A DNA stretch of 64,000 nt from Schmidtea nova (lineage: Eukaryota), in NCBI GenBank assembly GCA_044892505.1, contig CM097883.1:264430001-264494000 (forward strand), given 5' to 3'. Below, in pieces: positions 9,529-44,845 of this stretch. Within the stretch, counting starts at the first letter, position 1. Each line of letters begins with the position of its first letter. A program made the translations under genes and the position numbers. Below the pieces are notes generated by a model, which searched no databases, had not been told where the DNA came from, and saw nothing but the letters and a program-made list of their open reading frames with translations.

Positions 9529-9564
<36 letters not shown>

Positions 9565-10028
9565 ATCAGGGTATAGATAATTGATACGACCATATAGATA
9601 ATTATTACGAGATATAGATAATTTAAAATCTGAGCTCAGAGTAAAAGGGGGGGGGGTAAATAGCGTCGATGAAGAAGCGATTTTATTTTAGACTGTCCAA
9701 CAGATCAAAGCCAAGTCAAGAGACAGTCAAATCAATCAGTTATTGAAGAGGTATATATAGAAGAAAAGAAGAAAAAGAAATATAATTGAAAAGGAAAGAA
9801 GTAAAAGAAAATAAATCAAAGAAGATCCAATTGAAGATAAAAGAGAGATCAGCAATCGATATTAAACACGAATTGATAATATTACTAAACCAACCAAGTT
9901 CGTAAAGTCGAAAGATAGAATCAAATCTATTAAGAAACGACGAGAGGAAATTGCAAAGAAACAAAGCTGATAAATAAAGAAGTAAAATCCACAATATTAG
10001 AAAGTTTGTAGCCGATTTTCAGAAAGAA

Positions 10029-13138: not shown

Positions 13139-13288
13139 CCAGTGGAAGGAACAGTGTATATAGTGTATAAAATTATATTGTATTATAAAAGTAGAATATA
13201 TTTGTATAATAAAAATTTAAAAATCCAAAAAATGAATACCTCAAAACTGGGAAAAACAAATGATAATATTGTGTAATTATTGTCAGAA

Positions 13289-13924: not shown

Positions 13925-13964
13925 AAATTTAAAACCAGTGTAAATAAAATGTAAAAATGTGAAT

Positions 13965-15422: not shown

Positions 15423-15739
15423 TGAAGATGAAAAGAAAGTGTAAATATGTCTGTATTATAATACATTATCGGTATCATAATGTACAAAATAAAATTAGAA
15501 AATCACAAAAAACATAAAAAAAAAAAAATTAAAAAGAAATATAAAAATGAGAAAAACCAAAAAATCAAATATAAAAATGAGAAAAATCAAAATTTTGTAA
15601 ATATAAAAAACAAAAAATTGTGAAAAATATGATGTAGAAAATATTGTAGATACAATGACTGAAAGGAAGATCGTGAAAATACGAGAAGATGATAGATCAT
15701 TCAAATGTTTGTGCGAATTAATGAAAAGAGAAAGAAAAG

Positions 15740-16822: not shown

Positions 16823-16956
16823 TCCAATCAAGCAACCTTGTAAATAAATTGTAAAGATTTTAACTTCAATTGATGTATACAAGTATTATTTAATAAGCAT
16901 GAGCAACAAAAAATGTATAAACAAAAGGAAATTACCCATGTTATTATTATTTCAGA

Positions 16957-18504: not shown

Positions 18505-18794
18505 ATAATAAAAGTGAATGTAAAGTGTAAAAAGAAGTCGAAATGTAAAGTGTAAAAAGAAATTGAAATGTAGTGTAAAAAGAAAACGTTGTAAAGAAAT
18601 GTAAAAAGAAAAAGTCGTAAAATATATCCAAAAAAATTAAATAAAAAGCAGAAAAAATAAAAAATTCGATAAAAAATAGAAAAAATGAAAAACAAATAAA
18701 AATTAGAAAATGATAAAAATAATAAAAATGATAAAAACAAAAACAAAATTAATAAAACTATAGAAAAGAGTTATGAAAATTCATATTATAGAAA

Positions 18795-19370
18795 ATGAGA
18801 CTATTGAAGCAAAGATCAGAACCAGAACAACAGACGATATCAAAAGAAAGATTCAAAAAATGGAAGAGAGCAACAGAGCAATATTATCAAGACCAAATAG
18901 ATCAATTGAAGGAAGTAATGAGCAAAGATAGAAAATATATCGCACAAATGGAACAAAAGTGCGAGACGATGGAAATAATCAAGCGAGAAAATTATCTATT
19001 TCGCCAACAAAATGGTCTTACCCAAAAATATTGCGACAGACAGAAGCAAGAGATTGACAGACTCAAAAGGGAAATAAGCAGTGAACAGAACACTGATAAT
19101 AAAAGGAGAATTAAGATCGAGTCATTACAACGATCCTTGAAGAGCAAACAGAAAAAGATTATCAAAAGAGAAAAACAGATAATAAAGTTGAAAAGTGAAA
19201 TCATAGAAGCAAAATTTGATACATTCAAAGCAAAGAAAGTTGTAGAAATCAAAACGGCAGAAAATTACGTCCTCAAAGAACAAAGGCGAAAAGAAGCAGA
19301 CGAGATTGCAAAAATGGGTAACTGGAAGCCAGAAAATCCGTTAAAGCTAAATGAAGAGACGAAAGAATAA
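18795..19370 (+). CDS. 191-aa coiled-coil protein (copy of 1107-1682)
   Basis: Near-identical translation to 1107-1682. Confidence 0.75.
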   Translation: MRLLKQRSEPEQQTISKERFKKWKRATEQYYQDQIDQLKEVMSKDRKYIAQMEQKCETMEIIKRENYLFRQQNGLTQKYCDRQKQEIDRLKREISSEQNTDNKRRIKIESLQRSLKSKQKKIIKREKQIIKLKSEIIEAKFDTFKAKKVVEIKTAENYVLKEQRRKEADEIAKMGNWKPENPLKLNEETKE

Positions 19371-19465
19371 AATATATCTAAACTCATGTAAATATCCCTG
19401 TAAAAATATAAAAGAGAAAATTTGACAAATCATTAAATAAATTTGAATCTATAAATCTATAGAAA

Positions 19466-20290
19466 ATGAGCAATCTAATGAGGATCACAACAACCATCAT
19501 GATATTTATAATTACAAACTGCCGAAGCGAAGAAGCATTGAGTCAATGTCAAGCAAGCCATCCATTTAGAAGATCCGATAGCATTTGCGTAAGCTATCAA
19601 GAAATTTGTAGCACCAGGAATGAGGAGTGTCAACAGATACAATTACAATGTCAACAATGTCCTAAATCCATTGAAGATTCAATCACCATCCTTAAACAAT
19701 TGAGAAATGAAACTCAACAATTAATCCAACTACAAATCTCCTTAACCAAAAAGAACAATCTTCAACTAAAGAAACAGCTCGAAAACCAATCATCTTTCAA
19801 ACAGTTGACAACCGAACTAAAGAAATTGAGCAAGTTAATAGAAAAATCTCTAAATAATAAAGACGAAGTTAGCGAGGAAAGATCAAGTTTTACAGAAGAG
19901 TTAAATCAAAAACTGAAAAGTCAACTTCATCAGACCGAGAGAATTATAAAACAATTGATATCATCCGAAAAGCAGAAAGAGATTATCCCTAAACAAGGAT
20001 CAACCAACGAAGACGTCAGAGACCGAGAAGCAGCCATCACAGTCGTCCTACAAGGTATCAGTCTTTTCGCGGTCATAATGATCCTTAGCATTGTTGCATC
20101 AATCGGATTAGAATAAATGAAATTAGAGAAAGCGAAAATCCAGTTGAATACCATCAAACGAATCACCCATGAAGACAACAACCCGTCAGAAAATTTTCTG
20201 AGATCAATATTTGAAGATCCAGTTCCAGAACAGCCTAATCCTGAGACATCTACAACCTCGATGTAGATGAATTACTTCTATAAACAATAA
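19466..20290 (+). pseudogene. Disrupted copy of the Cys-rich membrane protein
   Basis: In-frame stops at 20114 (AAA>TAA) and 20264 (CAG>TAG) relative to 1778-2602. Confidence 0.85.
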
Positions 20291-20494
20291 TACGATTCGA
20301 TTCCCCTTTTTGACAACTCATGTATTTTCTTCCATTCATTTAATCTATCTATCTATTTGTATTCTCATCTTGAACAATATTTCATCATCATTAAATCATA
20401 ACCCTGTTTAAAAAATCGTAACGCCCTTGTAAATAGCAAAAATTATTTATCGTCATTATTCAATTTCTTTCTATTAGAAACACAAAAATTAACA

Positions 20495-21289
20495 ATGAAA
20501 TCTTACCGAGGAGTTTTCTTAATCGCCATGATCACAACAATTTATTGTCATCTCGAAGAAACCCAGAAATCAAGCCAATTAAACCCAAATCAACAATGTA
20601 ATAAAGAACCATCTGAAATCTCTAACAACAAACAACTATTCGAAAAGATTGAGCAAGCCAAAATCGAAATTCAAAATACCCTTTTCAATCAAAATGATGA
20701 AATTTCAGGTCTAAAGAGAATAGCAAGGATAATATTAGCCGACTTAGCGATCAGAGATATATTCGAGGATATTTTTGATAATGATCGAGAAACCCGTGAC
20801 GCAATAAAAAGTCTCACCAAAGAACTTAAAATGAACGTAGGCAAGTTAATCGATCAGCTAACGATAAATTCATCAAGTCCGAAATGTCTGAAACAAATTT
20901 ATCATAACCTGTCCCAGCAGATATCCGAAGTAGGAAACCAAACGGCACAACAACTGAGAAAGGCTTATTTCGAGAACCTGGCATTTAGGAATTAAATCAA
21001 TGATCACATAAACGAGATATCGAAACCGGATAACAATCAAGACAGAGACAAGTGCAGAATATCCCCCCTATCATCCGAACGAATTCTCGATATCTGCCTG
21101 ATCATCCTTAACTTTTTCCTAATAATCGGAATTTGTGGTATAATATGGTTAGGCTTGACCGCCACAAGAATGATGAATAACATGATCTCCGAACAATCCA
21201 GAAGAGAAGATGACAAGAAACAGTTGATCAATACCGAGTCAATCAAACTATTCCAGTCGAAGATCCAACCAATTCAATCCAAAAGTTAA
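20495..21289 (+). pseudogene. Disrupted copy of membrane protein 2800-3594
   Basis: Premature TAA at 20993 and a 9-nt in-frame deletion relative to the A1 copy. Confidence 0.85.
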
Positions 21290-21606
21290 TTCAACAAACT
21301 TAATAAACTTGATAAAACTTTTATCCGAGTCGTTGTAGACTCATATCGAACTTTGATTAGCCGCTGTAGGCACATATATTACATTACATTTAATTTTGCT
21401 TGCGAGTCGATGTAGACTCATATTAATGTATACGTATTAACTTTTTATTAATTTTTATCACTTTTTATTTTTATTGTCGCGAACGGCATGATCACGACCA
21501 AGTAGCTAGTGTATAATGTACAACCTTTTGACCTTTGATTAATCTTGGTTCTTAACCCCTCTGAGAAATTGCGGGACGCAATTTTTGCGGGCCCCCGAGT
21601 ATTTTA

Positions 21607-23841
21607 TGTTGGGCCAAAACGCAATTTGTTTTAATAAAGCGATAACCCCATAGGTAGAGAACGCGCAAGATTCCATTTTTAACCTTAGCTTCCATTAAAA
21701 ATCCAACAATTAAGTTGAAAACAACAAAAGGTGAAGTGGAATCAAAACACATCAACCGGTAGAGTACGCGCTAACTGCGAATTTGTAAGTTTTTCACTGA
21801 AATCTCGAGAAAAATTAAAAGCAGAACGTTTGGAAGTTAGAAAAGGCGGAAAACCCATTGAAAATGCCCCTAAAGAACGGAATTTGTCATAAACCTTCAA
21901 GTGCAGAAAAATTAACAAAATTTTAGAAGAAAATTGTGATTTTATCACAGAATTTCACATTTAACAATAGAAAGAATTAATATGGATCGGAATATCATAA
22001 ATTAAATCAAATCGAACAAATTTAGATTCAAACATAAAATTTTGAATTAAAATAAATTAATTATGATTTATAAAAAATTATTATATAAAAATATGGAATT
22101 AATTTTCGGAAAATCATTAGAATTAATTTAGAAAAAATTAAGAGAAAATTCTAGAACAATTTGTTTTATTGCACTACTGAAGATAGCGAAAATTTGATGG
22201 TATATATACCGCCATCAAAATGGCAGAATTCAGAATTTGTGAAGAATTTGTGGAGAAAAAAATTTTTTTTTGTTGTTAAAGATTTGGTGTAAAATTTTCG
22301 AATTTTAATTCTATTGGGTCCCAGAGAAGATTTTGCTGAAGATTTCAATTTAGCTCGCAGCAGACATTTTGAATAGAAGACATTGCCGAAGAATTTATTT
22401 GGAAAAAATCTTGTGAAAAAATTTGAGAAAATTTTTTTGGAAACTCTCAAGAAGTCTAGAGGACATTCCGAACATTTTGCAGAATTTAATTCCCGGAGTG
22501 CGAACCTATTTTTTCAGAACTTGGAACGTAAGGGTATTTTTATTTTATTTTTGTTTTAGCTTGTTCGAGGGGTATGGGATCGTCGATCATCATGCCTGAC
22601 GATCATCCCATTCCTCGCGTTCGTATTATTTCATAATATTTTATTATTATTGTATTAATATTTTGATGTATTATTATTTAAATAGCGAATTCATTTTTAT
22701 TTCGATTTATTTTTGAATTTTCTAAATGTATAATTCACACATTCCCATAATATTAAAAACTTTCATGCAAAAATTATCTAAATAAAATTATGAAAACTAA
22801 ATAGATCTTTTTTTCTCCCATATCTTCTGACGATCCGTCCAGCCTTGGTTGTGCGGATCTGTTAGTAGCCTGGGTGGATCGTTGTCTGATTGGTAATCGG
22901 CCAGCCCATATTTCCACTTTAAGGTGAGGCTCATACATCCATAATCTCGTCATCCCAACTGGGGAATCGTGGTATGGCCAAGAGCAAGGATTTGTTATAC
23001 TAATGATTTTTATTATTATAGAGTAGTATATTTTTATTATCTACATAAGCAATTTCGTAATACAACATAAAATTTTCTAATTCACGTCTTGAAATCTAAA
23101 ATAGGAAATATTACTGATTAAAAAAAAATCGACTCGTACTCACCTTCACCTTCACACTCTCAACAACGGTCATCTCATGCGAAAACGCAAGAAAAATGAA
23201 AGCTAATGATGAAAAGAAAATTGTTCGAATTAATGCTCAAATCCGATGGAATAATAATGAAACCGAAATTAACTTTACTCGATGTCGAAAAATATTCGTT
23301 GAAAAATTTATAACTTATTTTTATTTTATTTTTATTCAGTATATAAAACTTTTTAGGTTGAATGCTTATTTAGATTTCGAAATTTATGGATGAAAAATTT
23401 ATTATTATGTGGATTTCGTTTCGATCAAAAAATAAAAATTTACTTTTTATTATATTGAAAAAATTTTTATAATGAAAAATTGTAAACCAAAAATTTTCCT
23501 AATATTGTTATGATATAAAAGATTTTGTCATTTTATAAAATTCCTAAGAATTTATAAATCAAAACTTATATTGAAACCCATAAAAATTTTAAATCGAGAA
23601 TATTATTATTATATTGAAAATTTTATCATTTTATAAAATCCAAAATTTCGAAATTTTATAGAAAGAATTTTTACTATTAACATATATATATATACTTAAA
23701 ATATAAAAATTCGAATATAAAAATGTATATTATAAAAATTAGAAATTTTATTATTATATTATTTTCATAAAATTATAAATTTAAAATTTATAAAAAGTAT
23801 TATAAAAATGTATATTATAAAAATTAGAAATTTTATTATTA
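21607..23841 (+). repeat. Family A LTR, left part (interrupted by element B)
   Basis: Starts TGTTGGGCC; collinear with about 3930-6200. Confidence 0.85.
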
Positions 23842-24184
23842 TGTTGGGCCCGCCAAATCACCTAAAAACACAATAAAAGAGCGAAAACATGAAACAGTAA
23901 GGAAATAATAAAAATAAAAATAACAATAAAAACAAATTAAAAACAAGAATAAAATGACAAATAATATTTGATAAATTTTCAGTAAAAGGAAATTTTGAAA
24001 ATAAACCGGTAAACAACAGCAAAAGGGGGCCTGAAATAAGAAAAGATAGAATTAAATAAAATAATAGTGCAAATAATTAATTAATTACTCGAAAAATCAG
24101 GACCACCCAGCGAGAAACCGGAAAAGGAAACAAAATAATGTTTAGGTTAGAATAAAATAATAAAAATACTTTGATGGACGGTCT

Positions 24185-24230
24185 GATCCTGATTGGTCAA
24201 TCCAACCAGACGGATCAGTATAAATACCGA
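24185..24230 (+). promoter_or_regulatory. Candidate LTR core promoter (inverted CCAAT then TATA)
   Basis: CTGATTGGTCAATCCAA...CAGTATAAATA; a similar CTGATTGGT-containing GC island lies in the A LTR at about 5115-5230. No transcript evidence. Confidence 0.4.
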
Positions 24231-25316
24231 TCCAAAAATCACAACTCAACTGTTATCAAAACTTACAATCAAGACTAAACTTTGATTCTAAGAACTATTT
24301 TTTATTACTTAACCGAACGATTTTTCGAGAACCAGATTTACTTCAAATTCGAGGAAACATTCAATAATACATTCAAGTACGGAACGTAATATTTTATTTT
24401 TATTTTTAATGATGTTAATGTACCTATGATTTTTCTTCAATTATAATTTTATATTTCAAATTTACTTTATTTTTAATGCATATAGTTATACTTCCTAGGC
24501 TGCTTACGCGGCGAGGGAGTCCGAGTCGTCGTTGTGGGGCCTCACGGTCTCACATGGCGGTTCAACCTTTTTATTCTGTTAATTTTAATTTTGTGAACAT
24601 AATCCGAGAAACGGACAAAGATACTAATTTATTACTAACGATTTTCGATTTACACTTAGTTATTTGATAAAGATTTTCATAATGAATTATAAAAGTTTTC
24701 GACGATTTTCGAACTAGAATTAAATTATCGCATATTCGGTTGCACAGAGGGCATAGTGTGGGGCACAGTAGGAAAGGCGGAAAGAGCTACCAGAAGGTAT
24801 GCAGCACCAAATGAAAGTCAGGTAGTAGCCTCCCAAGTACTAGGATTTTAGGGTAAAAATTTGAGGTTCCGGAGCATATGCGAGATGATACGAATGCGAG
24901 AAAATGGTATTCCAATCGATCAAATTTCGAATTTCATTACGGGTCAAAGTGCGACTCGATAAGATTTTCTTAGATAATCCAGACGAAAATACGTCATCAC
25001 ATTCCTGTTAAATAATTTACACGAATGCTAAAAATACTCTTAGACCGATCGCCGTACATGGCGCGGAATTCCCTGATTTATAAACCGATCGCTGTATATA
25101 GCGCGGAGATTTTAACTTTTATTCTTCCTGAACGCTTTAACTAGCGTAAGGCCATGTAATTATAAAAACGTAATCCGACCGTGGTATATCGCGGCGAAGG
25201 TAAATAAAATTAATCTTATTTTAAACTAAATTTTGTGATTACACGCGGTATCAATAAATCTTTCAACAAATTTCCTCCGTTAAATCCTATATTTTATATT
25301 CAATAAAGTAATACAG

Positions 25317-25796
25317 ATGTCGACAGCCGAGATTGAGAACCAATTGACTCAAATGCGAAACTTGGAACAATGGAATGCAGAAAATGGAATGGTCTCTCAA
25401 CTCAAAGAGCTACCTACACCGATATTGCGGATCCTCAATGCCCAAATGTATAAGTGGAGACATGGGTTTGGTCGAAAATGCCCGTTTTCAATATGGGTAG
25501 GAGGAAGTGACCAAGTACTTTACCGCGGAGGACCGAACTGGCCAATTACCCAAAGGCCTTACTCGAACAAATTTGGTCGAATGATCGTGGTAATAAAGGA
25601 CGCAGAAGGACGAGCGAGCCGCATAATTTATTGGGGACATATCCCTCGCCGAGAATTGTGTCGATTGGGCCTGCACGAGTTTCTGCCGCGGAAACCATTC
25701 GGCAAGGAATGCCAGAAAGGGCAACCCTCGTTTTCTTGGGCTCGCCTTCGTCAGATGCCGATAAACAACGAGATGCACAGCCTATTTCGGCGATAA
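25317..25796 (+). CDS. LTR-encoded 159-aa basic protein, unknown function
   Basis: Intact, GC-richer than flanks, ATACAG directly before ATG; repeated at 49812-50291. Confidence 0.7.
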   Translation: MSTAEIENQLTQMRNLEQWNAENGMVSQLKELPTPILRILNAQMYKWRHGFGRKCPFSIWVGGSDQVLYRGGPNWPITQRPYSNKFGRMIVVIKDAEGRASRIIYWGHIPRRELCRLGLHEFLPRKPFGKECQKGQPSFSWARLRQMPINNEMHSLFRR

Positions 25797-25986
25797 AAAT
25801 ATTTTGACAAAAATTTGTTTCTGAGTAAAAATATTAATGTTCATCAGTGGTTTTTGTTTTGAGTTTTCTTGTTTTGTATTATTAAACCGGTCATGTTCTT
25901 AACCTAATAATTATGCATTCAGATTTTAATTTTACACATAATCGAACCCTAAAGTGACAAAATAATTATCGTAAATCAATTCTAGA

Positions 25987-26583
25987 ATGAATATCGATGT
26001 GGCACACAGGGAGTTGGAAAAGATGTGGCGAATCCGGAGAACCCAGGACAAGGAATTGGGTCTCCTCAAAGCACAATTAATCAAAGCCGAGGCACAAGTC
26101 ACATATTTACGCAAAAGCTGGTTTGCTCCGGCTAGGATGAAGGAGCAAATCAGTAAAACCGAACGTGCCCAGCAAACTGCAGCAGATTATAAAATGGAAT
26201 GGGAAGCTACAAAAATAGAGCTCCGAAAGTGCCTCCATTCCATAACGGCCTCGTACATTGAGAAGGAACTGCGAGATCAAATCCGTCCTATTACATATCA
26301 AAAATGGACATCGGAAAAGAAAAGCGTCAACTCGATTGGCACGGACATCGCTGATCTCACCGAAAGCCAAAACGAGCCGGTTCCAGCAACAAATCCATCC
26401 ATTTCAATGGTAAATGCGCACCAGAAACGCAAGCGCATCGGGCAGAAAAGGCGACGGCAAAGAAAGCTGTTTGCCCAACGATTACAGAGCCAAGTAGATG
26501 GCCTGCATCAAATGACCGAAGGGGAATTATTAACGGAAATCTTTCCCCCAGCCGGAGTTTTCACTGAACTAATTAAAGATTGA
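25987..26583 (+). CDS. LTR-encoded 198-aa coiled-coil protein with basic cluster
   Basis: Intact; KRKRIGQKRRRQRK NLS-like stretch; repeated at 50482-51078. Confidence 0.7.
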   Translation: MNIDVAHRELEKMWRIRRTQDKELGLLKAQLIKAEAQVTYLRKSWFAPARMKEQISKTERAQQTAADYKMEWEATKIELRKCLHSITASYIEKELRDQIRPITYQKWTSEKKSVNSIGTDIADLTESQNEPVPATNPSISMVNAHQKRKRIGQKRRRQRKLFAQRLQSQVDGLHQMTEGELLTEIFPPAGVFTELIKD

Positions 26584-27058
26584 ATAAATTTTCGTGTTAT
26601 CTTAAAATTGTTATTGTTCATTTAAATTGATTTAGTTAACTTGACAAATAATTAGATAATTGTAGAATAAAAATATAAACTCATCTCACAAAATACCTAA
26701 TAAAGGCAAATAAATAATTAAGCGAGCATTTTGTTAAAACACTTCATGCAGAATAAGCAATGTTAAAGATAAATTTTCTGAAAGATTATTGCGGAATACC
26801 TAAGCGGATGATTAAAGCATAAGTCCTTCTAACGGCAGCAATGAACCCGTAAACATAAATGGGGAGTAGTACTAGCAATAGTGCTCACCTGCCCATCATT
26901 GTTTAACCACCCTGCGCATCACCAACTTGATTATATAGGGAAATAATCAAGGGCGCTCGAGTGTATAATTGCAATTTTATGCATGATCATGGATGAGGGA
27001 TCCCTAGTCATTGTTAGAGCATTTTTCATCTAACCCCTCCATGAACCTAGCATAAATT

Positions 27059-27076
27059 TGGGGGCTCAGCCGGGAT
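27059..27076 (+). other. Primer binding site, tRNA-Pro-like (TGGGGGCTCAGCCGGGAT)
   Basis: 16/18 match to the classic tRNA-Pro PBS TGGGGGCTCGTCCGGGAT; 6 nt downstream of LTR end; identical 18-mer at 53079-53096. Confidence 0.85.
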
Positions 27077-27384: not shown

Positions 27385-27846
27385 ATGGAGGAAAAACTGA
27401 AAGAAATCGAAGAATTTCTCAACACAGAAAGCGAAACATTAGAAACGATTGGCAAGAAAGTAAACCGATTTAGAGAGATTGAATTTCAGGAACCCACAAC
27501 ACAGACTGAGGAGACGGATGAATTAGTAAAGATAACAGAAAGAACAAGTAAAATCGACATAAAGACCCGCTACAAATGGTACAGAGCACGATTAGAAAAT
27601 GCAGAACTAAACATTAGGTGCCGACAAATAGAACAACAATTAACCCCAACATACAATCGTTGGAGGGTGCAAGGGGTAGAAGCAGCGAAAAAATACCGAC
27701 AGTGCTATATATGTGAGGATAGCGAGATACAAAGTATGTTTTTACCTTGCGGACATTTTCGTTTTTGTAAGATATGTGCCAGCAAGTGCGACCTATGTCC
27801 TATGTGCAACCTGATGATAGACGATAAAATTATTGTATATTTTTAA
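27385..27846 (+). CDS. 153-aa protein with C-terminal IAP/MDM2-type RING finger
   Basis: CYIC..SMFLPCGHFRFCKIC..CDLCPMC; counterpart at 55806-56288. Confidence 0.85.
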   Translation: MEEKLKEIEEFLNTESETLETIGKKVNRFREIEFQEPTTQTEETDELVKITERTSKIDIKTRYKWYRARLENAELNIRCRQIEQQLTPTYNRWRVQGVEAAKKYRQCYICEDSEIQSMFLPCGHFRFCKICASKCDLCPMCNLMIDDKIIVYF

Positions 27847-28732: not shown

Positions 28733-29342
28733 AGTGAATTATAAAGATATCCGGATAAATAGTAACAGAGGGAATATAGACCCATAGTGTAATCGTCGAC
28801 GAGATTTAGAGTAGTGCGCACTAGTAGTTAAGAGGATGCGAGTAAAGCTGATTATGCAACCTTAAGTAAAGCATGCAAGGAGAATAGTAAAAGTTTGGGC
28901 TGACTGGAGCAACCGGCAGAATAAGTAAAACGATTGCTAGCAGGGAATAATGAATAGAAATGATAAAATAATGATAAACGAGTCAGAAAGACTCAGGGAA
29001 TTAGAGCGCTCGAGCGACCAATAAATTGGGAAACTGTGGGAAAAGTAATTGATTTATAAAGTATAGATAATTATTACGACATAAATAGATAATTGTGACC
29101 AGTCTATAGATAATTTAAATAGACTAAAAATAAAGGGGAGTCTGGGAATTGGGAAATAATGAAAACCCAGTAATAAGTAATCCCGAAAGAAAGGGAATAA
29201 AAGCGCGACGATAACAATAATGTATCGTTGAGGACCTTTGTATTTTAGATATACAAATCAATCAAATCAATCAATCAAACAAGAAGAATCAGAAAACGAT
29301 AATAGATAGGACAAGAAAATTGATAATATAAAAGTAATCCAG

Positions 29343-31120
29343 TTGAGAAAAGGAGCAAAGAGCGTTGCAATAAAGCCAACAGAGAAGAAGAAAGCCGGCA
29401 GAGATAACAACAAAAACCCACAAGGGAATAAGGCAAGGAAGATAATAAGAGATAAAGCGATTATCGAAAACGATAAATTGTCAGTAGTAAGCAACAGCTC
29501 AAGTAACAAAGAAAACCAAGCGGAACCCAGAGAGAGCCAAACAAGTGAAATAGAAGTAGACGAAACTAATAACGATAATATAGAAGAAATAGAAAACGAA
29601 GTAGAAGTAGAAATCAACGAGAGTGATAACGATAGTATAATATCGAATAACGAAGTAATAAAGGAAACAGAAAGCGATCCAAGCTCGAGTGAAACAGAAG
29701 AAGAACATAACAACGAACTAGAAACAAGAGGAAACGAAAGTAAAATAACTCAAGACAGCGGAATTGAAATGAGTGAACCAAGAGAAGAAATAAAGGATAA
29801 ATTTGCAGGAGAACCGTTTAACGGAGATGCGAGTAAATTAGAAATCTTTTTAAAAGAATTTGGCATATTCGTGGAGGTATGCAAATGGAAAGCTGAAACA
29901 ACAGCAAGCAGAATACAGTTATATTTGAAAGATAGTGCATTGGACCTATATTTGGAAGCAAAAATAGTACCAATCCACCTGCAGACTGGCCAGCGATAAA
30001 GGACTTTTTCCAACAAACATTTGGAATAAATAAAGTGCTAAGCGAAGCATTCATAGAATTTTCAATGAGAAAACAAAAGATGAATGAATCTAACGCGGTA
30101 TACGCGAGCGAATTGAAAAAATTAGCAAAATCGGTATTCAAGGATGGGAGCCCAATAAACGAGGAACTAATGGCAGCCATCTTCATAGGAGGATTAAGAA
30201 GACCTGACATAAGAGCGCAAGTTGGATGCCAAGGATGCAAAACCATAGATCAAGCGTTAGAAACAGCTAACCGATTCGAACTGCATATGATAGGAAGTGA
30301 AGGCAGAATTTATTTAGCCATAAACACGGCGCAAACCGAACCAGAAGTAAATCTCAACAATCACATTCCAAATTCGCAACAATTAAATCGACCACCTCCT
30401 CAACGAAGGAACGAAGGAAATAAAGTGCAGAACTTTGGAAACCAAAACAATTACAACCCTCAAGGACAAACAAAACAGTGTAAAACATGTGGAAAGTTGG
30501 GACACTGGCAGCAAGAATGCTATCAAAATTTGAATTGCGGGAAATGCGGAGTTAAAGGACATTCGGAGAGTAGATGTTCAACGATAACCTGTTTTAATTG
30601 CGGACAACCTGGTCACTATTCAAGAAATTGCGGACAAAAAAGTAACCAGCGAGGAAATTGGCAGAACAATGGGAATCGACCAAATTACGGAAATCAAACA
30701 AACATCGGAAACCGACAAGATTATGGAAACCAACAAGTCAATAATAACAATAATCAGAACAAAACTACCACCAAAGAAATACATTTGATGCAAGAAGTCC
30801 AAAGGTTGACGGAACTTATAAATAATACGACGAGAGGAAATCCGCAAACCAATCAACAGCAAATTAGCATGATGAGAAAAATAGAAAGCGAAAACGAACG
30901 GTTGAATCGAGAAAGTCAGGCACGACACGCTCAGGAATGGGCAAGGATACAAAGAGAAGACGAACAAAAACAGCAAGAAAGAGAGCGACAACCTCTAAGA
31001 ATAAACATGCTAAGAGCAACAAAGCAAACAGATAACCACGAGAAGGAAACCACATCAGAAATAAACCCGAATCCAACCAACAACGAAAGTCGAAAAGAAA
31101 TAGTACAAAAAGATGAGTAA
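29343..31120 (+). pseudogene. gag: gag (acidic N-terminus, capsid-like region, three CCHC zinc knuckles), frameshifted near 29975
   Basis: PFNGDASKLEIFL..F capsid-start motif; CKTCGKLGHWQQEC, CGKCGVKGHSESRC, CFNCGQPGHYSRNC at 30479-30631. Confidence 0.88.
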
Positions 31121-31144: not shown

Positions 31145-34100
31145 GTGGAAACTGAGATAAACCAGGAAGAGAGAAGAAAAATTTGGATGATGGTATTCAT
31201 GCCCAACAACCATGTGTTTAGATTTCAATATAACGTAAAAGAAGAAGTGAGAGTATTATTCAACAAAGCAAACCAGATGGTTCCAGGAGTAACGAAACTG
31301 CCCAGAGAAGCGTTCTTACAAATAGGAGATGCACCATCAGTAAAATTGAAATTAACGGATATATGGGAAAACGTGGGAGTAACAGAGACAAAAAGAAATG
31401 TGATGAGAATCAAAGAAATAGAACCAGAAGAAATTCCACCACCAGTGCGGCGCGAAACCCGAATCAGTCGAATATTTAAAGGAAAAATGATACGAAGACG
31501 TTTGAAAGAAATAGACGAGTTGGAGAAGAAAATGAGAAAAGTCGAAGTAATAGAGGACAAGAGTGAACAAACCCCAGAAATTACCAAAACCGAAACAAAA
31601 TCAACGGAGAATATACAAGGGGAAACGAACCAAATAGCACATATTAATATGTTAAGAAATACCACCAGAGAATTTTCCGATGAGGAAGAAGATAGTGATA
31701 TCAGTAGCCTAGCAGGAGACATATTAAACGAACCCGAAGACGAAAACAAAGAGATAAAAGTAATAAAGACCTCAGAACCTACACAGATAAAAGTGGATGA
31801 AATCCAGAAATTACTAGATAACTCGCTAGAGGTAATATATAACGAAGAGTTCATGGACAAGAAACAATATCGGAAATTCATGAAAGCATTATTACAAATG
31901 AACTATAAAGAATGGTTACAAGACCGGGAAGTAGACATGTTAAATCGATACGTAGGGAAATTAATAGAGAACCACTCCTCAATTACACCATCTCAATAAT
32001 AATAAATACATCTACACCAAGAATCTGGATCAAAACTCCATTTACGGACGATATCTACAGATGGGTAGAGGATAGACTAGGGAGCTCACATAAAAACAAA
32101 TTCATCTATTCGCAGAATAGACTCGTAAAGAAAAGAACGCACCTAGTAGAAACAGGTATATGGCCAGGAGAAGTAACCCTGTTATCAATATGCGATGAAA
32201 AGGAAGAAGAGAACCTACAAGAAGTTGCAAAGGAAGCAAACACGTGTTTCGAAAGGAGAATAAAACCACGGTTAGAATACGAGAAAGGACGAATCTTACG
32301 AAAGAATCTAAATTCCCTGATAGAACAAATCATACCACAAGTCAAAAAACATAGAAAAGAGTTAATGAGAAGCGAATATGAGAAACTGAAACGATGTATT
32401 GAGTGCATACGTGACACAAGTCACACGAGATGGTCACAGATCTCACACGACAAATTAATCGCAAAAATGGGGAAAACAATGTTCAGACAAGGGAAAATAA
32501 CAGATCTAAAAATTTCAGTAGAATTGCCTAATGAAGACACCAAAGAAATTGAAGTGGTAGCGGATTGCACCATTAAAGAATTAATAAATGTCATCAACGA
32601 GACACTAGTGCAAAGAGAACCAGAAGACGAATGGGAAGACGACATAATCATAAAATATAACGAACATGTATTATGGGATCACGATGAGAGACGACTATAT
32701 AAAATCGGTATATGGGATAATCACCAAACCATCCACGTTATCAGAATGGACGATACACCCAGAGAAACTGCTAAAGATGAGAAAAGAGAACGGGAACGAC
32801 AGAAAGAAGTTGTACACAAACTACAACAAATAGTAGATATCTATCGAAATTGGCGAATTTGGCCAGAGTGGGAAAGCGTATTAGAAGAACTCAATCTCAA
32901 CAGACGATTACGAACACCCGTAGAAAAACAATGGAACGAGCAAGGAAAATGTTGGGAACCAAAAGAAGGGGAATATGAAGAAGAATATGAAAGAGGAATT
33001 GAAGATGACTGCGAACCAGAGATAGGAAGAGTTTGCATGGTAACAAGGAAAGCTACGCCAATAGACCTAGATGGACCAGAAACCGCGGCTATATGGTTAG
33101 AAAGGGAAAAGCAAAAAACGGAAGAATTTGTCGAAATATTGAAAACTAATGCGCACGGTAAGAGAAAATTAATAAAGGGTCTCGCAGATTTTTTCGTGGT
33201 AAATGGAGAGGATATAACATGCTTGCGTAAAGTAGCAAAAGCAATAGCGGAATATAAAAGAGTTAACGAGTGGTGCCCGGAACAACTAAACCACGTCATT
33301 AGGAAATGGAGAAATCAAGAATTCTCGCAAGAAATTCCACAGAAAGTACATTTAAGAATAATATATCCAAACAAGGATAAGGAAGAGTTTTGGGTAGGAA
33401 TAGCAGAAAAAATTCGAGATATTAAAAAGAAATTGAGATACGAACCACCATTCCATTTACAACACCAAGGACGATCATTAGATAACAGTTTGGAAATTGG
33501 AATAACGCCAGCACAACTAGATCTCATGAATACCTTGACAGTAGAAGCAATAGCGGGTCAACCATTGAAAAGTAAAGAAGAAAACCATAAACCACACGGA
33601 AGTATAAGTACGCCGAGCCCGATGAAATCAGTACTAACGCCAGGGACAAGTTCAAGACGATCTGAGACAACACCCAGAGGGAATAGAGAAATGACTCCAC
33701 CACAACCATACGACGTGGACGAAATTTTAACGGATAGCGACGATATGATAGAAGAGCTAACCGAATTAACAAAGGAAAAAGACGACAACATTTTCGAAAG
33801 AATACAAGAACTACCTACGACAATACAAGTAACCAACACCGGAGAAACAGAAGTCGAAGAAGAGATAATAATAGAAGAAATAAACGATTTGACAGAAGAC
33901 GAAACGAGAGGAGCGAATGTTGAAAATGTACAATTAACACAAGAAATGGAAAGATGGTTAGAAGAAAGAGCTAACGAACCAAGAGATGTCACGGAAGAAA
34001 CAGGACGGGCAACAAGGTTTGTGGAAACAGGTACAGGAATGGATAAACGACCTCGAGGTAGACCCAAGACAGATCCAGCAACTGTAGTTATAAGAAATAA

Positions 34101-34698
34101 AGATGAAAAGAGACAAGATCAATGGGAATTATGCTTAAGGAAACTAAATAAAATTGCGGAGATAAAAGAAAAAGAGACAACACCAATATGTCAAGGGGAG
34201 GAATGGATATCGAAAACAATACTGGAAATATTGGCAATAATTGATCCGGAATTGAGAAAATACTGGCGGATAACTGAGATAAGCGAAAAGGCGAAGTCAC
34301 TACACAGCGCAATCGCACCCATCTTACCGGAATTCATAAAAGAAAAGACGAAATCAAATCATTTAGACTGGCAAGGAACCACTACGTTAATAAAGAAACT
34401 GACAGAAGGAGCGGAAACAGATAACAAATACGTAATAGCCATTGCATATACGATCTACAATCTGTTGACACTAAGTAGAGGTCGACCAAAACCCACTGCA
34501 TTAGAGAGACATATAAAAAATACCGCAAAGATTATAGCTAGAGAAATAGAACCTTACGTCATTAACAAAGGAGGATGGGAAACATTTATAAAAACTAACC
34601 AGAAGAAAACGCAAGCGAAGAATATGAAAAAGAAATTCGAAAAAATATTGGAAGAGTTAGAAAAAGAACAAGCAGGAACAGGAAACGCGAAGTCATCA
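31145..34698 (+). pseudogene. Gag-Env intervening polyprotein segment: several Ubl-like domains, helical domain, Bcl-2-like domain
   Basis: In frame with gag across TAA 31118; frameshift near 31970; segment 33110-33560 is homologous to family A ORF1; YVINKGGWETF motif. Confidence 0.6.
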
Positions 34699-36720
34699 AT
34701 GAATTTGAGTTCTATAATAATGATGATGTTGATATGGATGATTAGCACCGATAGCGCAACAGCATTCGAAGTGTTTGATTGCGACCAAATGAAGTTAGGA
34801 GAAAAGTATTCATTGAGAGGTACGGAGCAATGCAAAGATGCAACTCCAGTAGAGTTGCAAAAGATTAAAAAGGAACAATGGTACCACGTGTATCAAGAAG
34901 CAGAACTCATAAAGACAATGGTGAATGAATGTAAGGTGAAGAAGACGAGATTCGCATTCTACTGCGGGAGAGGACATTATTCAGCATTTGTCATGCCAGG
35001 AACGGAAAGAGAACCAATCGTGTTACAAGGAGAAGACTGCGAAGCATTGTTTAAACATGGAGAAGTAACAACAAGAGACAAAATCAAGATAAAAGGAAAG
35101 CCAGGAATGATGCTGCAACAGACCTACTATGTAGCAGGACGGATTACGGGAGGAGAAGGATATTGTCAAGGAGAAACCTACCCGATATTCGGAGTACTTG
35201 CAACCAACTTAGTGGTGATGGATACGTATATAGTCGAACTAAAAAGCTACGAGGTATTCTTCGAACCAACAACGGGAGAAATGAAAACGTTATCCATGTG
35301 TAAAATCGACAGGAGCATGTGTCAAACGGGAATGTCAACATTAGTATACAAACCAAAGGTGAACGAATGTCAATTACAACTGCTACAAGGAGCAAAGTTA
35401 GACGAAATTCAAGGAAAAACGTTCCAGGAAGAAGACGATGACGACAAAGCTAGAGCAAAGCATCTCAAGGAAGCTTTGGAGAATAAAAGACAATTGAAAC
35501 CAGATCATAGAGAAAAACGGATAGAGATGAGAGCCACACCAACAGTGTTGATAACCACAAATCAGGATGTGGGAATGAGATTCATAAAAGGGAAAGCAAC
35601 CCTTTAGTGTAGTACAACGGTATACGAAACGAATTATCCAGGAATATATGTGTCAAAACAAGAAGTGCCGAATGCGAAACCCAAAATCGACACAATGGAT
35701 ATCAAACTACACTTGTATGTGAATAATAAAATGGATTTCCTATTCCATAGAGGACAAGCCTCATTACAAAAAGTGTACTACGATCTGATAAACAATGATT
35801 GTATACTGAATCGAGAAATATTAAAGACAAAGTTGGCCGTAGCGAATACGAATCCAGATAGCGCGATGCCATTATTACCACTGAAAGAAGGACATTTCGG
35901 AAGAGTGGTTGGAGAAGCAATGTATGTATACATTTGTGAAAAGACACACGCGTCGCTAGCAGCAACAACGCAGTTGAAACCTGGAACCTGTACAAATGAG
36001 TTAGAAATCGATTACAAAGGAAAAGTACGATACGTTCAACCGGTGACGAGAATCATCAATCCACCAGGGTTTGAACCAAATCCATTCAACTGTAGTAATG
36101 CGTACGGACCGCTTTATCAGAAACCAGATGGTAAATGGGTTATGTTCCCAGGAAGAGCCGAAGTGATAGCACCAAGAGAATTCGAGCTAATGCAGTTGTC
36201 AAAAGATAGGCAATTCAGCGACGTAGATGTCTCAAACAACGGAATATATAGTCCAAAGGATTTAGAAGCAGCAAGGCAGAATATATTATTCCCGGCGAGA
36301 AGAGAAGCATTACTGTCAAATATCGTAACGATAACGGGAGGAACGGATTATCGAGAAGGACCGAATTATGAACTGTTGTTGTCACCAGCACATTTCAAGA
36401 AAGCCACAGAAAATATGATGAAAGCAATGTGGGGAAGATTCCTGATATTTGGACAAATGATGGCTGGAATACTGGGGGTTATATTAATAATACAAATCGT
36501 CAGAGTGATAATAACGCAAATGTTAGCGTGTTTCGATATCTACAAGAGAGAAAAGAAAGTGAATTGGAAAATGGTAGTAGGGTTTTTACCATTCCTTGCG
36601 AAAACGATGGTGTTGCACGGACACTCAAAGGACATACATCGAATAAAGAGATTGTTGAAGATACTCGCAAAAATGAAGGGAACAGATGAAGAAGTAGGAC
36701 GAAAATTTAAAAAGATAATG
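34699..36720 (+). pseudogene. env: Envelope glycoprotein, chuvirus/gB-like class III fusion type, one premature TAG at 35605
   Basis: Signal peptide then VFDC..YSL..C..C..FYCGRGHYS; later C..L..NP..G....GEAMYVYIC, CTNELEI..PVTRII, GIYSPKDL..ILFP; TM at about 36440-36515. Confidence 0.75.
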
Positions 36721-37059: not shown

Positions 37060-40000
37060 CATACAATCGCCGTAATGTCATCAAATACAGGTCCAGTACT
37101 AACCACGACAATAGAAATTAACGGAAGAGAAATCGAAGCAATGATCGACACTGGAGCAAATATTTCCGCCATCGACATCAAATGGATACCACAAGAACAA
37201 AGACTGGAAATAGAAAGGACAAACGTCCATGTAATTGCATGTAGCAAAGAAATCGTAGAAGTAGCAGGGAGATGGTGGGTAAAAATACGCCACTTAAATA
37301 CAGAAATCGATACGTACGTAGCAGTCATACCAGCATTAAGCGTACCTTGCATTATTGGAACGGATTTGATGCCAGCTTTATTTAAAGAAATTGTAATCGA
37401 TCTCGGAACAATGAGACTAAAAGATCGTACCGGACAAATATGCGCAATAGAAGCCAAAGTGACAAGTTCAAAGCAAATGATAATACCCGCAAGAAAGGAA
37501 AAAATATGTTATGTAAAAATAGATCCGACAATCCAAGGGGATATGATTTTCGAACCAAGTAAAAGATTCGAGAAAAGAAAAGCGTTGCCAATGGCAAAAG
37601 GATTAGTCAACATAAATGATAATGGAGAAATTCCAATAAAAGTAGTAAATTTCGACGAAGAAGATAAGATAATCTACGAAAACGAAAGATTAGGTAAATT
37701 AACCCCAATGATGGATATCGAACTACCAATAGAAGGAGCAGAGAAAGATAAAGAACCAACCTGGAATATTGATAGTGAATTATTAAATGAGGACCAAAAG
37801 AAACAGTTAGAAAAACTGCTGATGGAGTATAAGGATATATTTGCAGCATCCGATTTAGATCTAGGAACCTGTGATGTCACGTTACATACGATACCATTAA
37901 CAGACGAAACACCAATTGCATTAAGGCCGTACAAACTAGCGGAAGCACAGAAAGCAGTAGCTGAAGCAGAAGTGAAGAAAATGTTGGATGCAGAAGTAAT
38001 CGAACCAAGTTGTTCACCCTGGCAATTTCCAGTGGTAATGGTAAAGAAGAAAGACGGAACACAGAGATTTTGCATCGACTATCGAAGATTGAATACGGTA
38101 ACAAAACGAAACACTTACCCATTACCGGACATCAACGAAATGCTATTAACATTACAAGAGGCAGCATATTTTACATCGCTAGATCTGAAAAGCGGATATT
38201 GGCAAATAAAAATGAAGGAAGAAGACAAAGAGAAAACTGCCTTTACCATCGGTAGAGACCTATATCAATTTAGAAAGATGCCATTTGGACTAACAAACGC
38301 ACCAGCATCATTTCAGAGATGCATGAATTTCGTCACCCATGGAATAAAGCAGTGTATGGTCTACATAGACGATTTATTAATTTATTCTAGCACGTTTGAA
38401 CAACACATACAGGATATTCGAGATGTATTCGTTAGACTGAGACAATGGAAGTTAAAACTCAAGCCATCCAAATGTGATTGGGCTAAAGAGAAAGTAACAT
38501 TTTTAGGACATATAGTGTCAGCAAAAGGAAAAGAACCGGATCCTAGAAATATCGACAAAGTAAAAGAATGCCCAGTACCAAAAACAATAACCCAAATACA
38601 AGAATTTCTCGGACTATGTGGATACTATAGAAAGTTTATAAAAGATTACGCCGGAATCGCTAAGCCTATACAGGAGCTGGTAAAGAAAGATGTATCATTT
38701 ATATGGGGAGACGAACAGCAGACAGCTTTCGAGACATTAAGAGATAAACTGATAACCGCACCCATATTGGTACACCCAGACTCCAAGAAGCCATTCCTAC
38801 TTGCAACAGACGCAAGCGGATATGCAGCAGGAGCAGTATTAGGACAATACGATGATGAAGGAAAGGAACGGGTAATCGGATATTATAGCCGGACGTTCAA
38901 AAAGCATGAGAAAAATTACTCAGTAACGGAACGAGAAGCATTAGCAATTATATTAGCGATTAAACATTTTAAATACCTATTATGGGGACACATCATCTGC
39001 ATAACAACAGATCACCAACCGCTTGTATGGCTAGGACAGCACAAAGAAACATCCAGTAGATTAATGTGATGGGCAATGCAGTTACAGGAGTACTCACCGG
39101 ACATAAAATTTAAATCAGGACGAGCGAATGCGAATGCAGACTGTATGTCAAGACTGACATTTCCGGAATTAACCGATCCTGATGTACAACGAATCTGTGT
39201 ATTAATAGCAGAAGATTTAGATTTTAGTGAGTTAAAGAAAGATCAACAGGAAGACAAAGAATTAGGACAGATCATAGAGTTCCTAACATCTCGAAACATG
39301 GAGGTATTCAAGGATAATAAGGAACTAAAGGAACATATAGGAAAATATCAACATCGCTATATATTAAACAAAGGATGGTTGTTGATACAAGACGGTGAAA
39401 AGAGATTGATGTGTTTACCGGAAAACAGAAGGAAAGAGATAATGATCCAGTACCATGATGGGAAATTAGGAGGTCATATGTCCGAGAAAAAGACAAAAAA
39501 TCGTATGAGACAAAAATATTATTGGCGAACAATGGAAGAAGATATTAAAGAATGGATTAAAAATTGTCTAACTTGCGCAACCAGAAAGGATAGTGGGAAG
39601 AAATGGAAGAACCCGCTACAACCAATGCCGATACCAGCAGAGCCAATGACAACTATAGCAATGGACGTAATAGGACCATTACCAGAAAGTCTAAACGGAA
39701 ATATCTATATATTGGTGATAACAGATTATCTGACAAAATTCCCGGAAGCATTTGCCATGCAAGACCAAAAAGCAAAAACCGTAGCAAAAATTTTAGTGGA
39801 AGAAATATGTTGCAGATACGGAACTCCAAAACAAATACTCACAGACCAAGGAACTAACTTTATGAGTGAGTTATTAGACGAGGTGACAAACTATTTTAGA
39901 ATAGCAAAATTGAGAACTTCACCATATCACCCGCAAACGAATGGACAAACGGAGCGATTCAATGGTACATTGATTAGAATGCTATCCAATTACGTCAGCA

Positions 40001-42720
40001 GACACCAAACTGACTGGGACGAGTACATAAAATTATGTTTAATGGCATACCGAATGTCGATACATGCAGCAACAAAACTAAGCCTGTTTCAACTTATGTA
40101 TGGAAGAGAATGCAACATGCCCATAGATTTGGAGTATCAACCACCATTATCGCAATATATGGAAGACGACGACTACGTAACCAAATTCAAAGAAAGAATG
40201 CAGGAAATATGGAAGACGGCAGAACTCAACATTAAATTTTATCAGGAAAGTTATAAGGATTTACACGACCAAAAGAAAAATGTAAAAGCAAACGATCTAA
40301 AACCAGGAGACTGGGTGATAATAGAAACTCCCGAAATAATACCAGGAACTGTTAAGAAACTCCAAAGACCTGGAAGAGGACCTTATGAAATTATATACAA
40401 AAAAGACAATAATGTCAAAGTTAAGCTAGTAAATCGACCTTTAGTACGACCCATATATGTAAACACCTGCAGATGTAAGAAAGTACCTAAAACGATAACT
40501 ACAACACCAGAGAATCGAATAATAACCAGATCACAAACAGCCAGGATAAATATGCTCAGAGCAAACACAAGCAAAGACGACAAAGCGGAAATAAGGCAAA
40601 AGGAAATCAGAAATAAAGAAATCATATTGAAGGCGAGAGAAATAATGGGAAGATGGCATGTTAGAGACAAAGTAGGCATATCAAGGGACATTAGACATAT
40701 AATTAGCCGTTACGCACAAGGATTACTAACCGAACCAATTATTTCTGAATTATTGGGAAAAATCCCTGAAATACTCTTATTGAAAGATGTAGGAGGACAA
40801 CCAGCCTTACACAATGCGATACAGTGTAAAAACAGTGAAAGAGTAAAAGAATTCTTAAAAATCGCAAAAGAAACAAACCAAAACTTGGACGTGGGGAATC
40901 GTGAACAAGAAACTCCATTAATGACAGCCGCAATCCACCAAGCAGATAAAGAAATGGTAGATCTGTTGATAAAAGCCCGTTTCAGTTGGACAGAACGAGA
41001 TAGAGAAGACAAAACAGTGCTAAATCACGTAATATGGAGTTCTCACCAACCAATGCTGAAATACATAATAGCTAACTCCACGTGGGAAATAGACGAATTA
41101 ATAAAAGGAGACATTATCAAAGAAGCAATAAAAATTGGTAAATGCAACACGATCCGTAAGTTAATCAAATGGAAACGACCAGAAGATGATACATGGGTCT
41201 TAGACATAAACGAAGTATACAGCGAAGGACAAAACGCGCTGTTAAGATATCTTTTGAAATTTACTTGCGATCAAAAGACATTACTAACCTTATTAGACAG
41301 AGGAAACATAAACATCACAAAGAATGAAGAAGAATACAAATTCGATAAAGAGAAGGAGGCCTTATTCAACAAGATTAGGAAATGGTGTGCGAAACCACTT
41401 GATAAACTAATAACATACAAAGACATAAACAATTTTATCGAGAAATACCAGACGATAGTAAGTGAGTATGAGGAATTAGTAAAAATCTTAAACCACCCCG
41501 AAAATTGCAAACAGGTTTTGAAAAAAAAGGAAAGAGAAAGTAACAAGAAACTCACACCACTCTTCAAAGCAGAAGCATCATACCAAGCTAGACTAGATGC
41601 GATACAAGAAAAAGCAAAGGAATTGCTACCAGAATTCGAAAATTGTAAACACGCATTAGAAATATTAGGCGCAATCGTGGAAAAGGTACACGCATACGCA
41701 AAAGGAACTTACAACGGAAACGACATAGTAATAATAAAAAAGGAGATGCCAGTAGCATTCTTACTACCAAAGGACGGAATAATGCCCATACATAGAGCTT
41801 TACGAAATGGCAAAGATAGAAAAGTAATGGAAATTGCAAGAGTAATGCTAAACTGCGGAAGCAACATGAATATGATAGACGAGAAAGGAGATACACTCAT
41901 GGTATTTGCAGCAAGGGCTAAAACAAAAACAAAGGTGTTAGAAGAACTATACAAAGCAGGTGCAGGACTTACAGGAAAGACAGACAAAGACAACTCCATT
42001 TTGGATGTAGCATTATTAACACATAATTGGGAAATGGTCAATTTCATTAAAACAATTTCAAACCAGGAAGAAATAGAATACCTAGCTAAAACAGTTAAGA
42101 AACCCAGTGTACTAACAATGATGAACAACGTCGAACTTACAGAATCAATACTTACGTTGGTAAATCCGAATACAAACGAACCAGCATTCAGGATTAACGA
42201 GTTTACAGAACATAACCAAAACTGGTGTATAAGAAGTGCCCTAATAACATATAAATGGCCAGAGATATTGAAGATGTTTATGGAAAGAAAGGATCTAAGA
42301 GTCACAAACAACCCGAGAGAAGGAAAATACACAGGCAAATGGAAAGAATTAATGAGGACATACATCAACAATTGGATCAAGGCCAAAAAGGAAATCGTGG
42401 AATATAAATCCACTAACAAAGTAATACCGGAGCATGTAGAAACACAAGAATTTGAGGCAAGTAATCTAACGACATTAGCATATGCAAAATTGATAGAAGA
42501 AATCAATGTCGAGGACGACATTTTCAACGAGCCAGGAGAAGATGACAATACAGATAGTGACGACGATAACAACTCAGAAAATTCGAACGATCACGAACCA
42601 CCCGATAAAGAGGAAAACGAGAGAAAAGACAAGAAACGAGACAAGGAAGAAAAGAAAAGTGAAGACGAAAAACAAAGAAATGAAGAGAGGAGAACAAGGA
42701 AAAAACGACCAAGGAGATAA
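37060..42720 (+). pseudogene. pol: pol: protease, dUTPase-like remnant, RT, RNase H, integrase, two ankyrin-repeat blocks; premature TGA at 39067
   Basis: DTG 37147; FCIDYRRLN, YIDD 38362; LATDASG, ELEA-equivalent EREAL, TDHQPL; integrase HD..GGH..CLTC, MDVIG, TDQG, TERFN; TPLMTAA ankyrin. Confidence 0.95.
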
Positions 42721-44845
42721 AATTGACACCCAAAGAACAGGTTATAAATCAACCATAAAACCATTCTTCAAACCAGAGTTACTATTATTAACAGTGATTT
42801 TAACGTTAATTAACCCAAGTCAAGGAATGACATGTGAAGAACGGGCAATAATACAAATAAAAAACGCAAAAGGAATCGAACGAGTATGTTGGTCGAAAAA
42901 GGACAAAATCACGGAACAAAATAGTCCGATGGATTGCAGAATCTCAGAACACGAGCAAGAGATCATAGAGATCGATGACTTAGATCTAAATACCTGGTAC
43001 AGAATATGCACCGTTAGAAAACAAAAGCATCCAAGATCACACAACACAATCGCATGTGCAAACTACCAAACACCTAAAGCAACCATGACAGTACAACAGT
43101 CACCCGAAGGAGATTACATCGTCGGAAAATGTGGAAGAACAGAGACACAGGGAACCGAAAACAAAAAACCCCACGCAATAGATAAGCAAACAACACCAAC
43201 TATACGAATTACAATAGAGAGGCCCGAAGCAAGAGTTGCCACAAACGAAACCGAAAGAGTGTCTTACCAAATGGAAGTATTATGTTTAGCACTCATACTA
43301 ATAATAATAAAACGACTAGAGGAAGGGATGGAAATTGAAACTATGACAATAACGGAAGTAGAAGATACACAGAATACTAACATAAAATGTTGGGCAAGGA
43401 ATAACGAGGAAGTCGGCGTAAACGAAATAAGGAAAAGTCGAAAACCAACAACAAATAAAGTAATGAGAGTATCCGAAGTAAAAGCAGACAAGATGTACAA
43501 ACTATGCCTACTAGAAAAAGAGATAAACAAGAAAGGTACCACAAAATGTAAAACATTCCAACCTGGAGAAGTAATAAAGTTCAGAAGGAGAACGAGGAAG
43601 AGAAATAAACAAATCAAGCAGAAAGTAAACATAACATTAGAAATATAAGAGATAGAACCAAATGTGAAAGGAGTATGCTGGAGGAAGTACGAAAAAGAAA
43701 CAAATAAAAGAATGACACCACAATGTCGAACAAGCACAGGAGCAACGACGGTACAAATAAAAGGTTTAGAAAGTAAACAAACTTACGAAATATGTCTGGT
43801 AAAGAAAAGTGATCAGATAACGATAAACGATCTAGAGTGCGGGATATATACAACTTCATCCGGAACAGGAACAAAAACGCTAACACGGAAAAATAAAAGA
43901 AGACAACGAAACAGAGGAAAACCGAAGTACACCACTACCCTTAAAAACGACAAACAACCAACAAACCAAGAAGTTAAGATAAAACCCGAGAAGAAGACAT
44001 CAGCAACTCTGACATTATGGAAAATAGAGAATAAAACATTAGAAATATGTTGGATAATAGTCCAGAAACATATAAGAAGACAATCAAGAGAGTGCAGAAA
44101 AACAAATAAAGAAATCAAGATCGAAAAACTACAATTTAATAGCGAATACGAAGTATGTGCAATAGAAAAAACGGACGCACTCGGAAACCAACAAGAAAGA
44201 TGCGTAACCTACTATACACCAGCAAACGCGACATCAAAAGGAGTAGCAAGGAAACTCGAATTCAAGGAACTAAGCCAAACGAATAAACAAATGGACGCAG
44301 AAAAAATAATAACCGACCCTCAAGCAAAATGGACACCTGAAGAAGTTATCAAAGAAGTCAAAAGAAAGCAGGAGGAACGAGAACAACTAAGGAGAAAACT
44401 AAAAGGACAATATGGAATAATGTTCAACAAAAGCGAACCTATACCAACAGACGAGAATAAACAAATTAAAGAATTAATTGGCTTAGGAATATTAACAGCG
44501 ACCATACCAGTAATAATCGCATTATCAGCTATATGGATACGCAAGATAAATCCCAGAAAATCAACAACCCAATGGCTAAATATAGATAATACAAGCCATG
44601 GAGTAGAAATACTAGAAGAAAAAACACTAGAAGAACCAAATGAGAAAGAAGCAAAAAGCGGAAAACTACGAATAAACAACGAAGACAAGGAAATAAAAGA
44701 GATTAAAGGCGAAGAGAAAAAATATGAAAGTCGAACCAGAAGCCTACCGCAGAGTTCAAAATGGTTGGGTCTAACAATAATATTGAGTTGGGTAATAAAT
44801 AGATTAAACAACGAAGCGGAACCAGATTCAACGAATGAGCCATAG
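42680..44845 (+). pseudogene. Membrane protein with signal peptide, about four FN3-like repeats and TM; in-frame TAA at 43646
   Basis: LLLLTVILTLINPSQG; repeats such as DDLDLNTWYRICTV, KGLESKQTYEICLV, EKLQFNSEYEVCAI; TM LIGLGILTATIPVIIALSAIWI. Confidence 0.6.

Follow-up and report, generated by a model that had tools for sequence, protein, structure and literature searches.

A very divergent, predicted Bcl-2-fold domain between Gag and Env in a Burro-type LTR retrotransposon of Schmidtea nova

What might a Bcl-2-like segment be doing directly ahead of the envelope protein (Env) of a retrotransposon? The question is raised by a 64,000-nucleotide stretch of Schmidtea nova contig CM097883.1 (assembly GCA_044892505.1, forward-strand positions 264,430,001 to 264,494,000; hereafter the window), which carries a 27,706-nt long terminal repeat (LTR) element on its + strand at 23842-51547. 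A preliminary description had pointed to a BH2-like motif ending in GGW, a basic linker, a hydrophobic stretch and the Env start, and all of these lie where it put them; the start it gave for the segment, 34190, is sound as a location but one base out of the reading frame, whose codons begin at 34189. We predict from modelling that the segment is a very divergent Bcl-2-fold domain in the polyprotein between Gag and Env, within the + strand frame 31909-35607. The parts concerned, compared below with element families A (to which the window copy belongs) to D, are the following.

34123..34170, + strand: extra helix preceding the fold; its LxxIA pattern is common to families A-D (low model confidence, pLDDT <50 for residues 1-24)
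34192..34602, + strand: Bcl-2-fold domain, a predicted helical bundle with degenerate BH1 from 34417 and BH2 at 34555-34587
34603..34704, + strand: lysine-rich linker of poorly conserved sequence
34705..34764, + strand: hydrophobic internal Env signal sequence, with a signal-peptidase site predicted after 34764 by the small-residue -3/-1 rule
34765..36513, + strand: Env, a Monjiviricetes-type fusion glycoprotein ectodomain plus transmembrane helix (36469-36513); PF24664, E 1e-18 and 6e-49

The LxxIA pattern of the extra helix is one that we take to be reminiscent of BH3. Relatives came from a search of the genome with the Bcl-2 profile PF00452, in which 150 candidates were scored and 141 matched, mostly in long frames. 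Among the 30 loci fetched, 16 proved to be copies of two sister element families, B and C, and 14 were host-exon- or pseudogene-like. Both families have a linker, a hydrophobic stretch and that same Env start after the domain, and their alignment with the window protein runs without interruption from the domain into Env; a fourth family, D, was also recovered. Families B and C exceed the PF00452 cut-off, which neither the window domain nor that of subfamily A2 does, and membership of the window domain in the Bcl-2 family therefore rests on transitive homology together with fold. The element profile, run against 1.84 billion proteins, returned nine matches: six element-like domains (P0001 and P0003-P0007; the Env start follows in three of them, and Gag lies upstream of a fourth), two ordinary Bcl-2 proteins and a coiled-coil, which was rejected as false.

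A profile built from 12 sister domains, with the window domain left out of the re-alignment, scores that domain at 49.3 bits (maximum of 1,000 shuffles, 12.1) and still 20.6 bits (shuffle maximum 10.8) once the C-terminal 28 residues, BH2 and beyond, are removed; its only significant match among 274 window frames is this one. With PF00452 at E up to 1, 12/13 rows are matched, the window domain being the sole miss. Profile-profile comparison links the window lineage to its sisters at 96.4% and the elements to host Bcl-2 at 95.6%, and a PDB search with element profiles ranks Bcl-xL first (E 9e-7 and 4e-9). The BH2-like pattern, ending in GGW at 34555-34587, occurs once in 127,996 six-frame window positions and is retained in 16/16 element rows. 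BH1 keeps its basic residue and is otherwise degenerate, reading TDNK in the NWGR columns with no canonical glycine-bearing NWGR, in line with the earlier remark that it is not recognisable. The predicted structure is a helical bundle around a central hydrophobic helix, as in the Bcl-2 fold. Sister-family homology and the model thus support the Bcl-2 fold that the preliminary description had proposed, and the bundle, which it had named as the check, indicates that the GGW match is not coincidental.

Several results weigh against this identification. Searches of Pfam, PDB sequences, the protein collection and the Atlas with the window domain alone match no Bcl-2 protein, and its own lineage (six copies) likewise gives no significant match. 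A profile of host proteins only gives 15.1 bits, almost entirely from BH2; the BH1 glycine column holds Gly in 1/16 element rows and the tryptophan column Trp in 1/16; Foldseek E-values of the model are 4e-3 or weaker; and the alignment behind the model included sisters found through a Bcl-2 search. The failure of the lone domain in all four collections would also suit the idea that the GGW match arose by chance or marks a decaying, functionless relic. Positional and profile homology to the sisters, the fold match and purifying selection (below) speak against that idea, which is largely refuted and which we regard as very improbable.

A tree of 22 rows has a branch that separates the 13 element domains from 9 host-type rows (94/93, not starred, long branches); the element domains adjoin the host L036/L038/P0009 group with weak support. 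The tree is compatible with, and does not prove, a single capture from a host Bcl-2 gene, which we consider likely. The host genome also has a Bak/Bax-like gene in which a BH3-bearing exon with splice sites lies upstream of the BH1-BH2 exon (L151:5552-5647, - strand, and L035).

The preliminary description knew of no LTR retrotransposon with such a domain. Here it must be corrected: a BCL2-like motif is already on record for the Burro elements of planarians in PMC6431247 (section 7), which places an in-frame env after BCL2 and before the protease, so the presence of the domain is not new, and the element is a new member of this known, Burro-type family. The same section presents Burro1/GYPSM1 and Burro2-4 as giant Ty3/Gypsy LTR retrotransposons (citing Jurka 2007 and Grohme 2018) with ubiquitin-like, dUTPase-like, ankyrin, MATH/TRAF and BIR modules, and does not mention the signal sequence as an anchor. 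The Bcl-2 domain of the present lineage is too divergent for Pfam, unlike that of Burro as described. Added here are model-based structural support for a Bcl-2 lineage missed by standard profiles, evidence on single capture, on selection and on loss of the BH1 glycine across families, and a proposed topology; the remaining interest lies in the function of the domain, its remodelled groove and its shared anchor.

Identity to Hydra HyBcl-2-4, Bfl-1/A1, Bcl-xL and the schistosome and Trichuris BCL-2 proteins is 9-16%. Compared with cellular pro-survival Bcl-2 proteins, the domain has its BH1 Trp and Gly replaced, is embedded in a polyprotein and has the Env signal sequence as its hydrophobic tail. 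It resembles the viral Bcl-2 proteins (KsBcl-2, ASFV A179L, EBV BHRF1, M11L, N1; A46, A52, B14, K7) in being a captured, sequence-divergent fold in a mobile genome. Viral Bcl-2 proteins are stand-alone genes of DNA viruses, whereas this is a polyprotein domain of a reverse-transcribing element.

The hydrophobic stretch at 34705-34746, about 40 aa past BH2, is the only one between the domain and the Env ectodomain, and the Env profile PF24664 begins inside it (nt 34717, profile position 5). Positions -3 and -1 at the end of the signal sequence, ahead of the conserved Env start, hold small residues in A, A2, B, C, D, P0001, P0004 and P0006, and signal-peptidase sites follow a small-residue -3/-1 rule. 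The anatomy of seven lineages is consistent with a signal sequence that doubles as the anchor of the Bcl-2 domain. A different possibility, in our view improbable, is that the element's protease cuts a pro-survival domain out on both sides, leaving it soluble or mitochondria-seeking, so that its place beside the Env signal reflects polyprotein order only. The linker is indeed long and poorly conserved (17-50% identity between families), and cellular Bcl-2 tails are usually shorter than this; yet the frame has no other hydrophobic anchor upstream of Env, and linker plus signal sequence are confined to 52-62 aa in families A-D.

With roughly even confidence we favour the reading that the domain was captured once, is tethered to the endoplasmic reticulum (ER) by the cleaved Env signal sequence and keeps the producing cell alive. 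ER targeting would follow because the hydrophobic tail of the domain is the Env signal sequence. The latter would insert with its N-side in the cytosol, where, by standard polyprotein topology, Gag and the Bcl-2 domain would remain while Env enters the ER lumen, and the Env transmembrane helix at 36469-36513 would bring the enzymes back to the cytosol. Signal peptidase would cut on the C-side of the signal sequence, leaving it on the Bcl-2 side as a tail anchor, and the element's protease would free the domain from Gag. So tethered, the domain may bind a host regulator of death or stress; its specificity is probably narrowed, since the BH1 glycine is gone.

This pro-survival role faces objections of its own. 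According to the accessible text of PMC8998228, loss of the BH1 glycine makes a working BH3 groove unlikely or changes its selectivity, and pro-survival Bcl-2 proteins act mainly at mitochondria, not at the ER, where this anchor would place the domain. The ratio of nonsynonymous to synonymous polymorphism (pN/pS) was taken from 30 copies chosen on Env, 7 of the same subfamily and 23 of subfamily A2. In the 7 it is 0.077 for the domain, 0.12 for the flanking linkers and 0.06-0.12 for Env regions; the whole ORF (open reading frame) is under purifying selection, and the low value for the domain thus does not single out its function. In family C (27 copies) the domain has 0.37 versus 0.13 for Env, and between families the domain diverges faster (about 20% identity versus 32-34% for Env). 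One of the 30 Env-selected copies, L120 of subfamily A2, has lost most of the domain and the region upstream by an in-frame deletion, and retains BH2, linker and Env.

An unlikely alternative, drawn by analogy, is that the fold has been repurposed and, together with the TRAF and ankyrin modules, uses a surface other than the BH3 groove to block innate immune signalling. It would fit a BH1 that is degenerate in nearly all element families, the TRAF, ankyrin and FN3-like modules of the same element and, from the part of PMC7022251 available, the poxvirus precedent of vaccinia A46, A52, B14 and K7. The fold itself, as set out above, suits this alternative and the pro-survival reading.

Comparison of A with A2 (L105-L134, A2 frames about 5,085 aa; e.g. 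L116 versus 34120-35450) gives 97% identity over the first 200 aa of Env, 69% for the Bcl-2 domain and 47% for linker plus signal sequence, suggesting recombination at the signal-sequence/Env border. These figures bear on whether domain, linker and signal sequence serve mainly as a structural leader, by which Gag is tied to the membrane bearing Env while particles assemble, cell-death control being secondary or lost. Some viruses use a capsid anchor or an Env leader peptide in a comparable way, every family examined, even the compact ones of about 3,000 aa, has the module in the same place between Gag and Env, and in a single polyprotein Gag would at first be anchored through the signal sequence. 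A tether needs no Bcl-2 fold, however, yet BH2 persists in every row, and the A/A2 contrast implies a module exchangeable against Env; we consider such a leader rather improbable.

More tentatively, and with doubt, the anchored pro-survival reading can be extended to the whole Burro-type clade: one hydrophobic segment would thread Env into the ER and, after cleavage, serve as tail anchor to a captured Bcl-2 domain whose groove is remodelled. If so, one regulator of death or stress would be left on the same membrane with each Env produced. The accessible text of PMC13465017, citing Lee et al. 2026, reports protection of stem cells against apoptosis by the IAP of Burro1, which makes the Bcl-2 domain the obvious next module of interest and possibly a second pro-survival arm beside that IAP in planarian stem cells. 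The parts of PMC8532177, PMC11410931 and PMC13238120 available add nothing on the Burro BCL2 domain, and we found no published assay of a protective role for it.

The remainder of the element is laid out as follows.

23842..27052, + strand: 5' LTR, 3,211 nt, with TG...CA ends
27385..27846, + strand: short upstream ORF with an IAP-type RING finger (PF13920, E 8e-11)
29310..31120, + strand: Gag region, split over two frames in this copy, with CCHC zinc knuckles (PF00098, E 1e-10)
32497..32760, + strand: possible, weak ubiquitin-like domain (PF18036, E 0.057, below cut-off)
34045..34068, + strand: basic RGRP motif, upstream of the domain also in family B, P0001 and P0003
37105..39933, + strand: protease, weak dUTPase-like segment (E 0.15), reverse transcriptase (RT), RNase H, integrase
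40807..41076, + strand: ankyrin repeats (PF12796, E 1e-14)
43649..44518, + strand: weak FN3-like repeats (fn3, E 0.008, below cut-off), then a hydrophobic helix
44935..46314, + strand: separate downstream TRAF-like ORF with RING, TRAF zinc fingers and MATH (PF22486, E 9e-22)
48337..51547, + strand: 3' LTR

The LTRs differ at 13 positions in 3,211 nt (99.6% identical), and an identical 4 bases at both flanks form a 4-bp target-site duplication. Directly after the 5' LTR, 27059-27076 looks like a primer-binding site and resembles one for tRNA-Pro, and we take the RGRP motif to be AT-hook-like. Pfam matches run in the order RING ORF; Gag zinc knuckles; fusion glycoprotein; protease, RT, RNase H and integrase; ankyrin; weak FN3; TRAF ORF. 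This matches Burro on described anatomy: a giant, many-copied Gypsy-type LTR element with a PR-RT-RH-IN order, whose huge single ORF holds Gag, a BCL2-like domain, an in-frame env related to mononegavirus fusion proteins, and then the enzymes. It measures 27,706 nt against over 30 kb described for Burro, and ORF1 about 5,640-5,690 aa against 4,873 and 5,140 aa. Of the Burro accessory modules, ankyrin, TRAF and RING are clear and the ubiquitin-like and dUTPase-like ones below cut-off. Unlike Burro as described, TRAF is a separate downstream ORF (in copy L104 too), and Pfam finds no BIR in the scanned ORFs of this element, including the upstream RING ORF.

A genome search for copies, with 150 of 1,222 candidates scored, gave at least 150 copies at 94-100% identity; 140 of the 150 scored have no stop inside the match, and about 35, counted by eye, have frames >5,600 aa. 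Copy L103 has an open frame of 2,896 aa from Gag through protease. The window copy has in-frame stops in Env (35605-35607) and the enzyme region (39067-39069), with about seven breaks (stops and frame changes) in its ORF in all, and some 1.9 kb of copy L104 is missing from it. Near-identical LTRs despite a broken ORF hint at a defective copy mobilised in trans.

The region 31166-33570, after Gag and before the Bcl-2 domain, has up to four segments that look ubiquitin-like by eye, with a single weak Pfam match. Downstream of the ankyrins, FN3-like repeats, hydrophobic helices and another signal-like stretch occupy 42770-44518, and an ORF for a small membrane protein lies ahead of the 3' LTR (47529-48134); these may be receptor mimics. 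A second repeated element at about 8367-22250 (partial copies at 1-4578 and 56732-61835) has protease, ankyrin, TRAF and a full BIR + RING IAP, with no RT, Env or Bcl-2-like match in its scanned ORFs, and is possibly a non-autonomous Burro relative. A weak endonuclease VII match (E 2e-4) falls in a 1,421-aa ORF (L153:2325-6590) that lies upstream of a family D copy.
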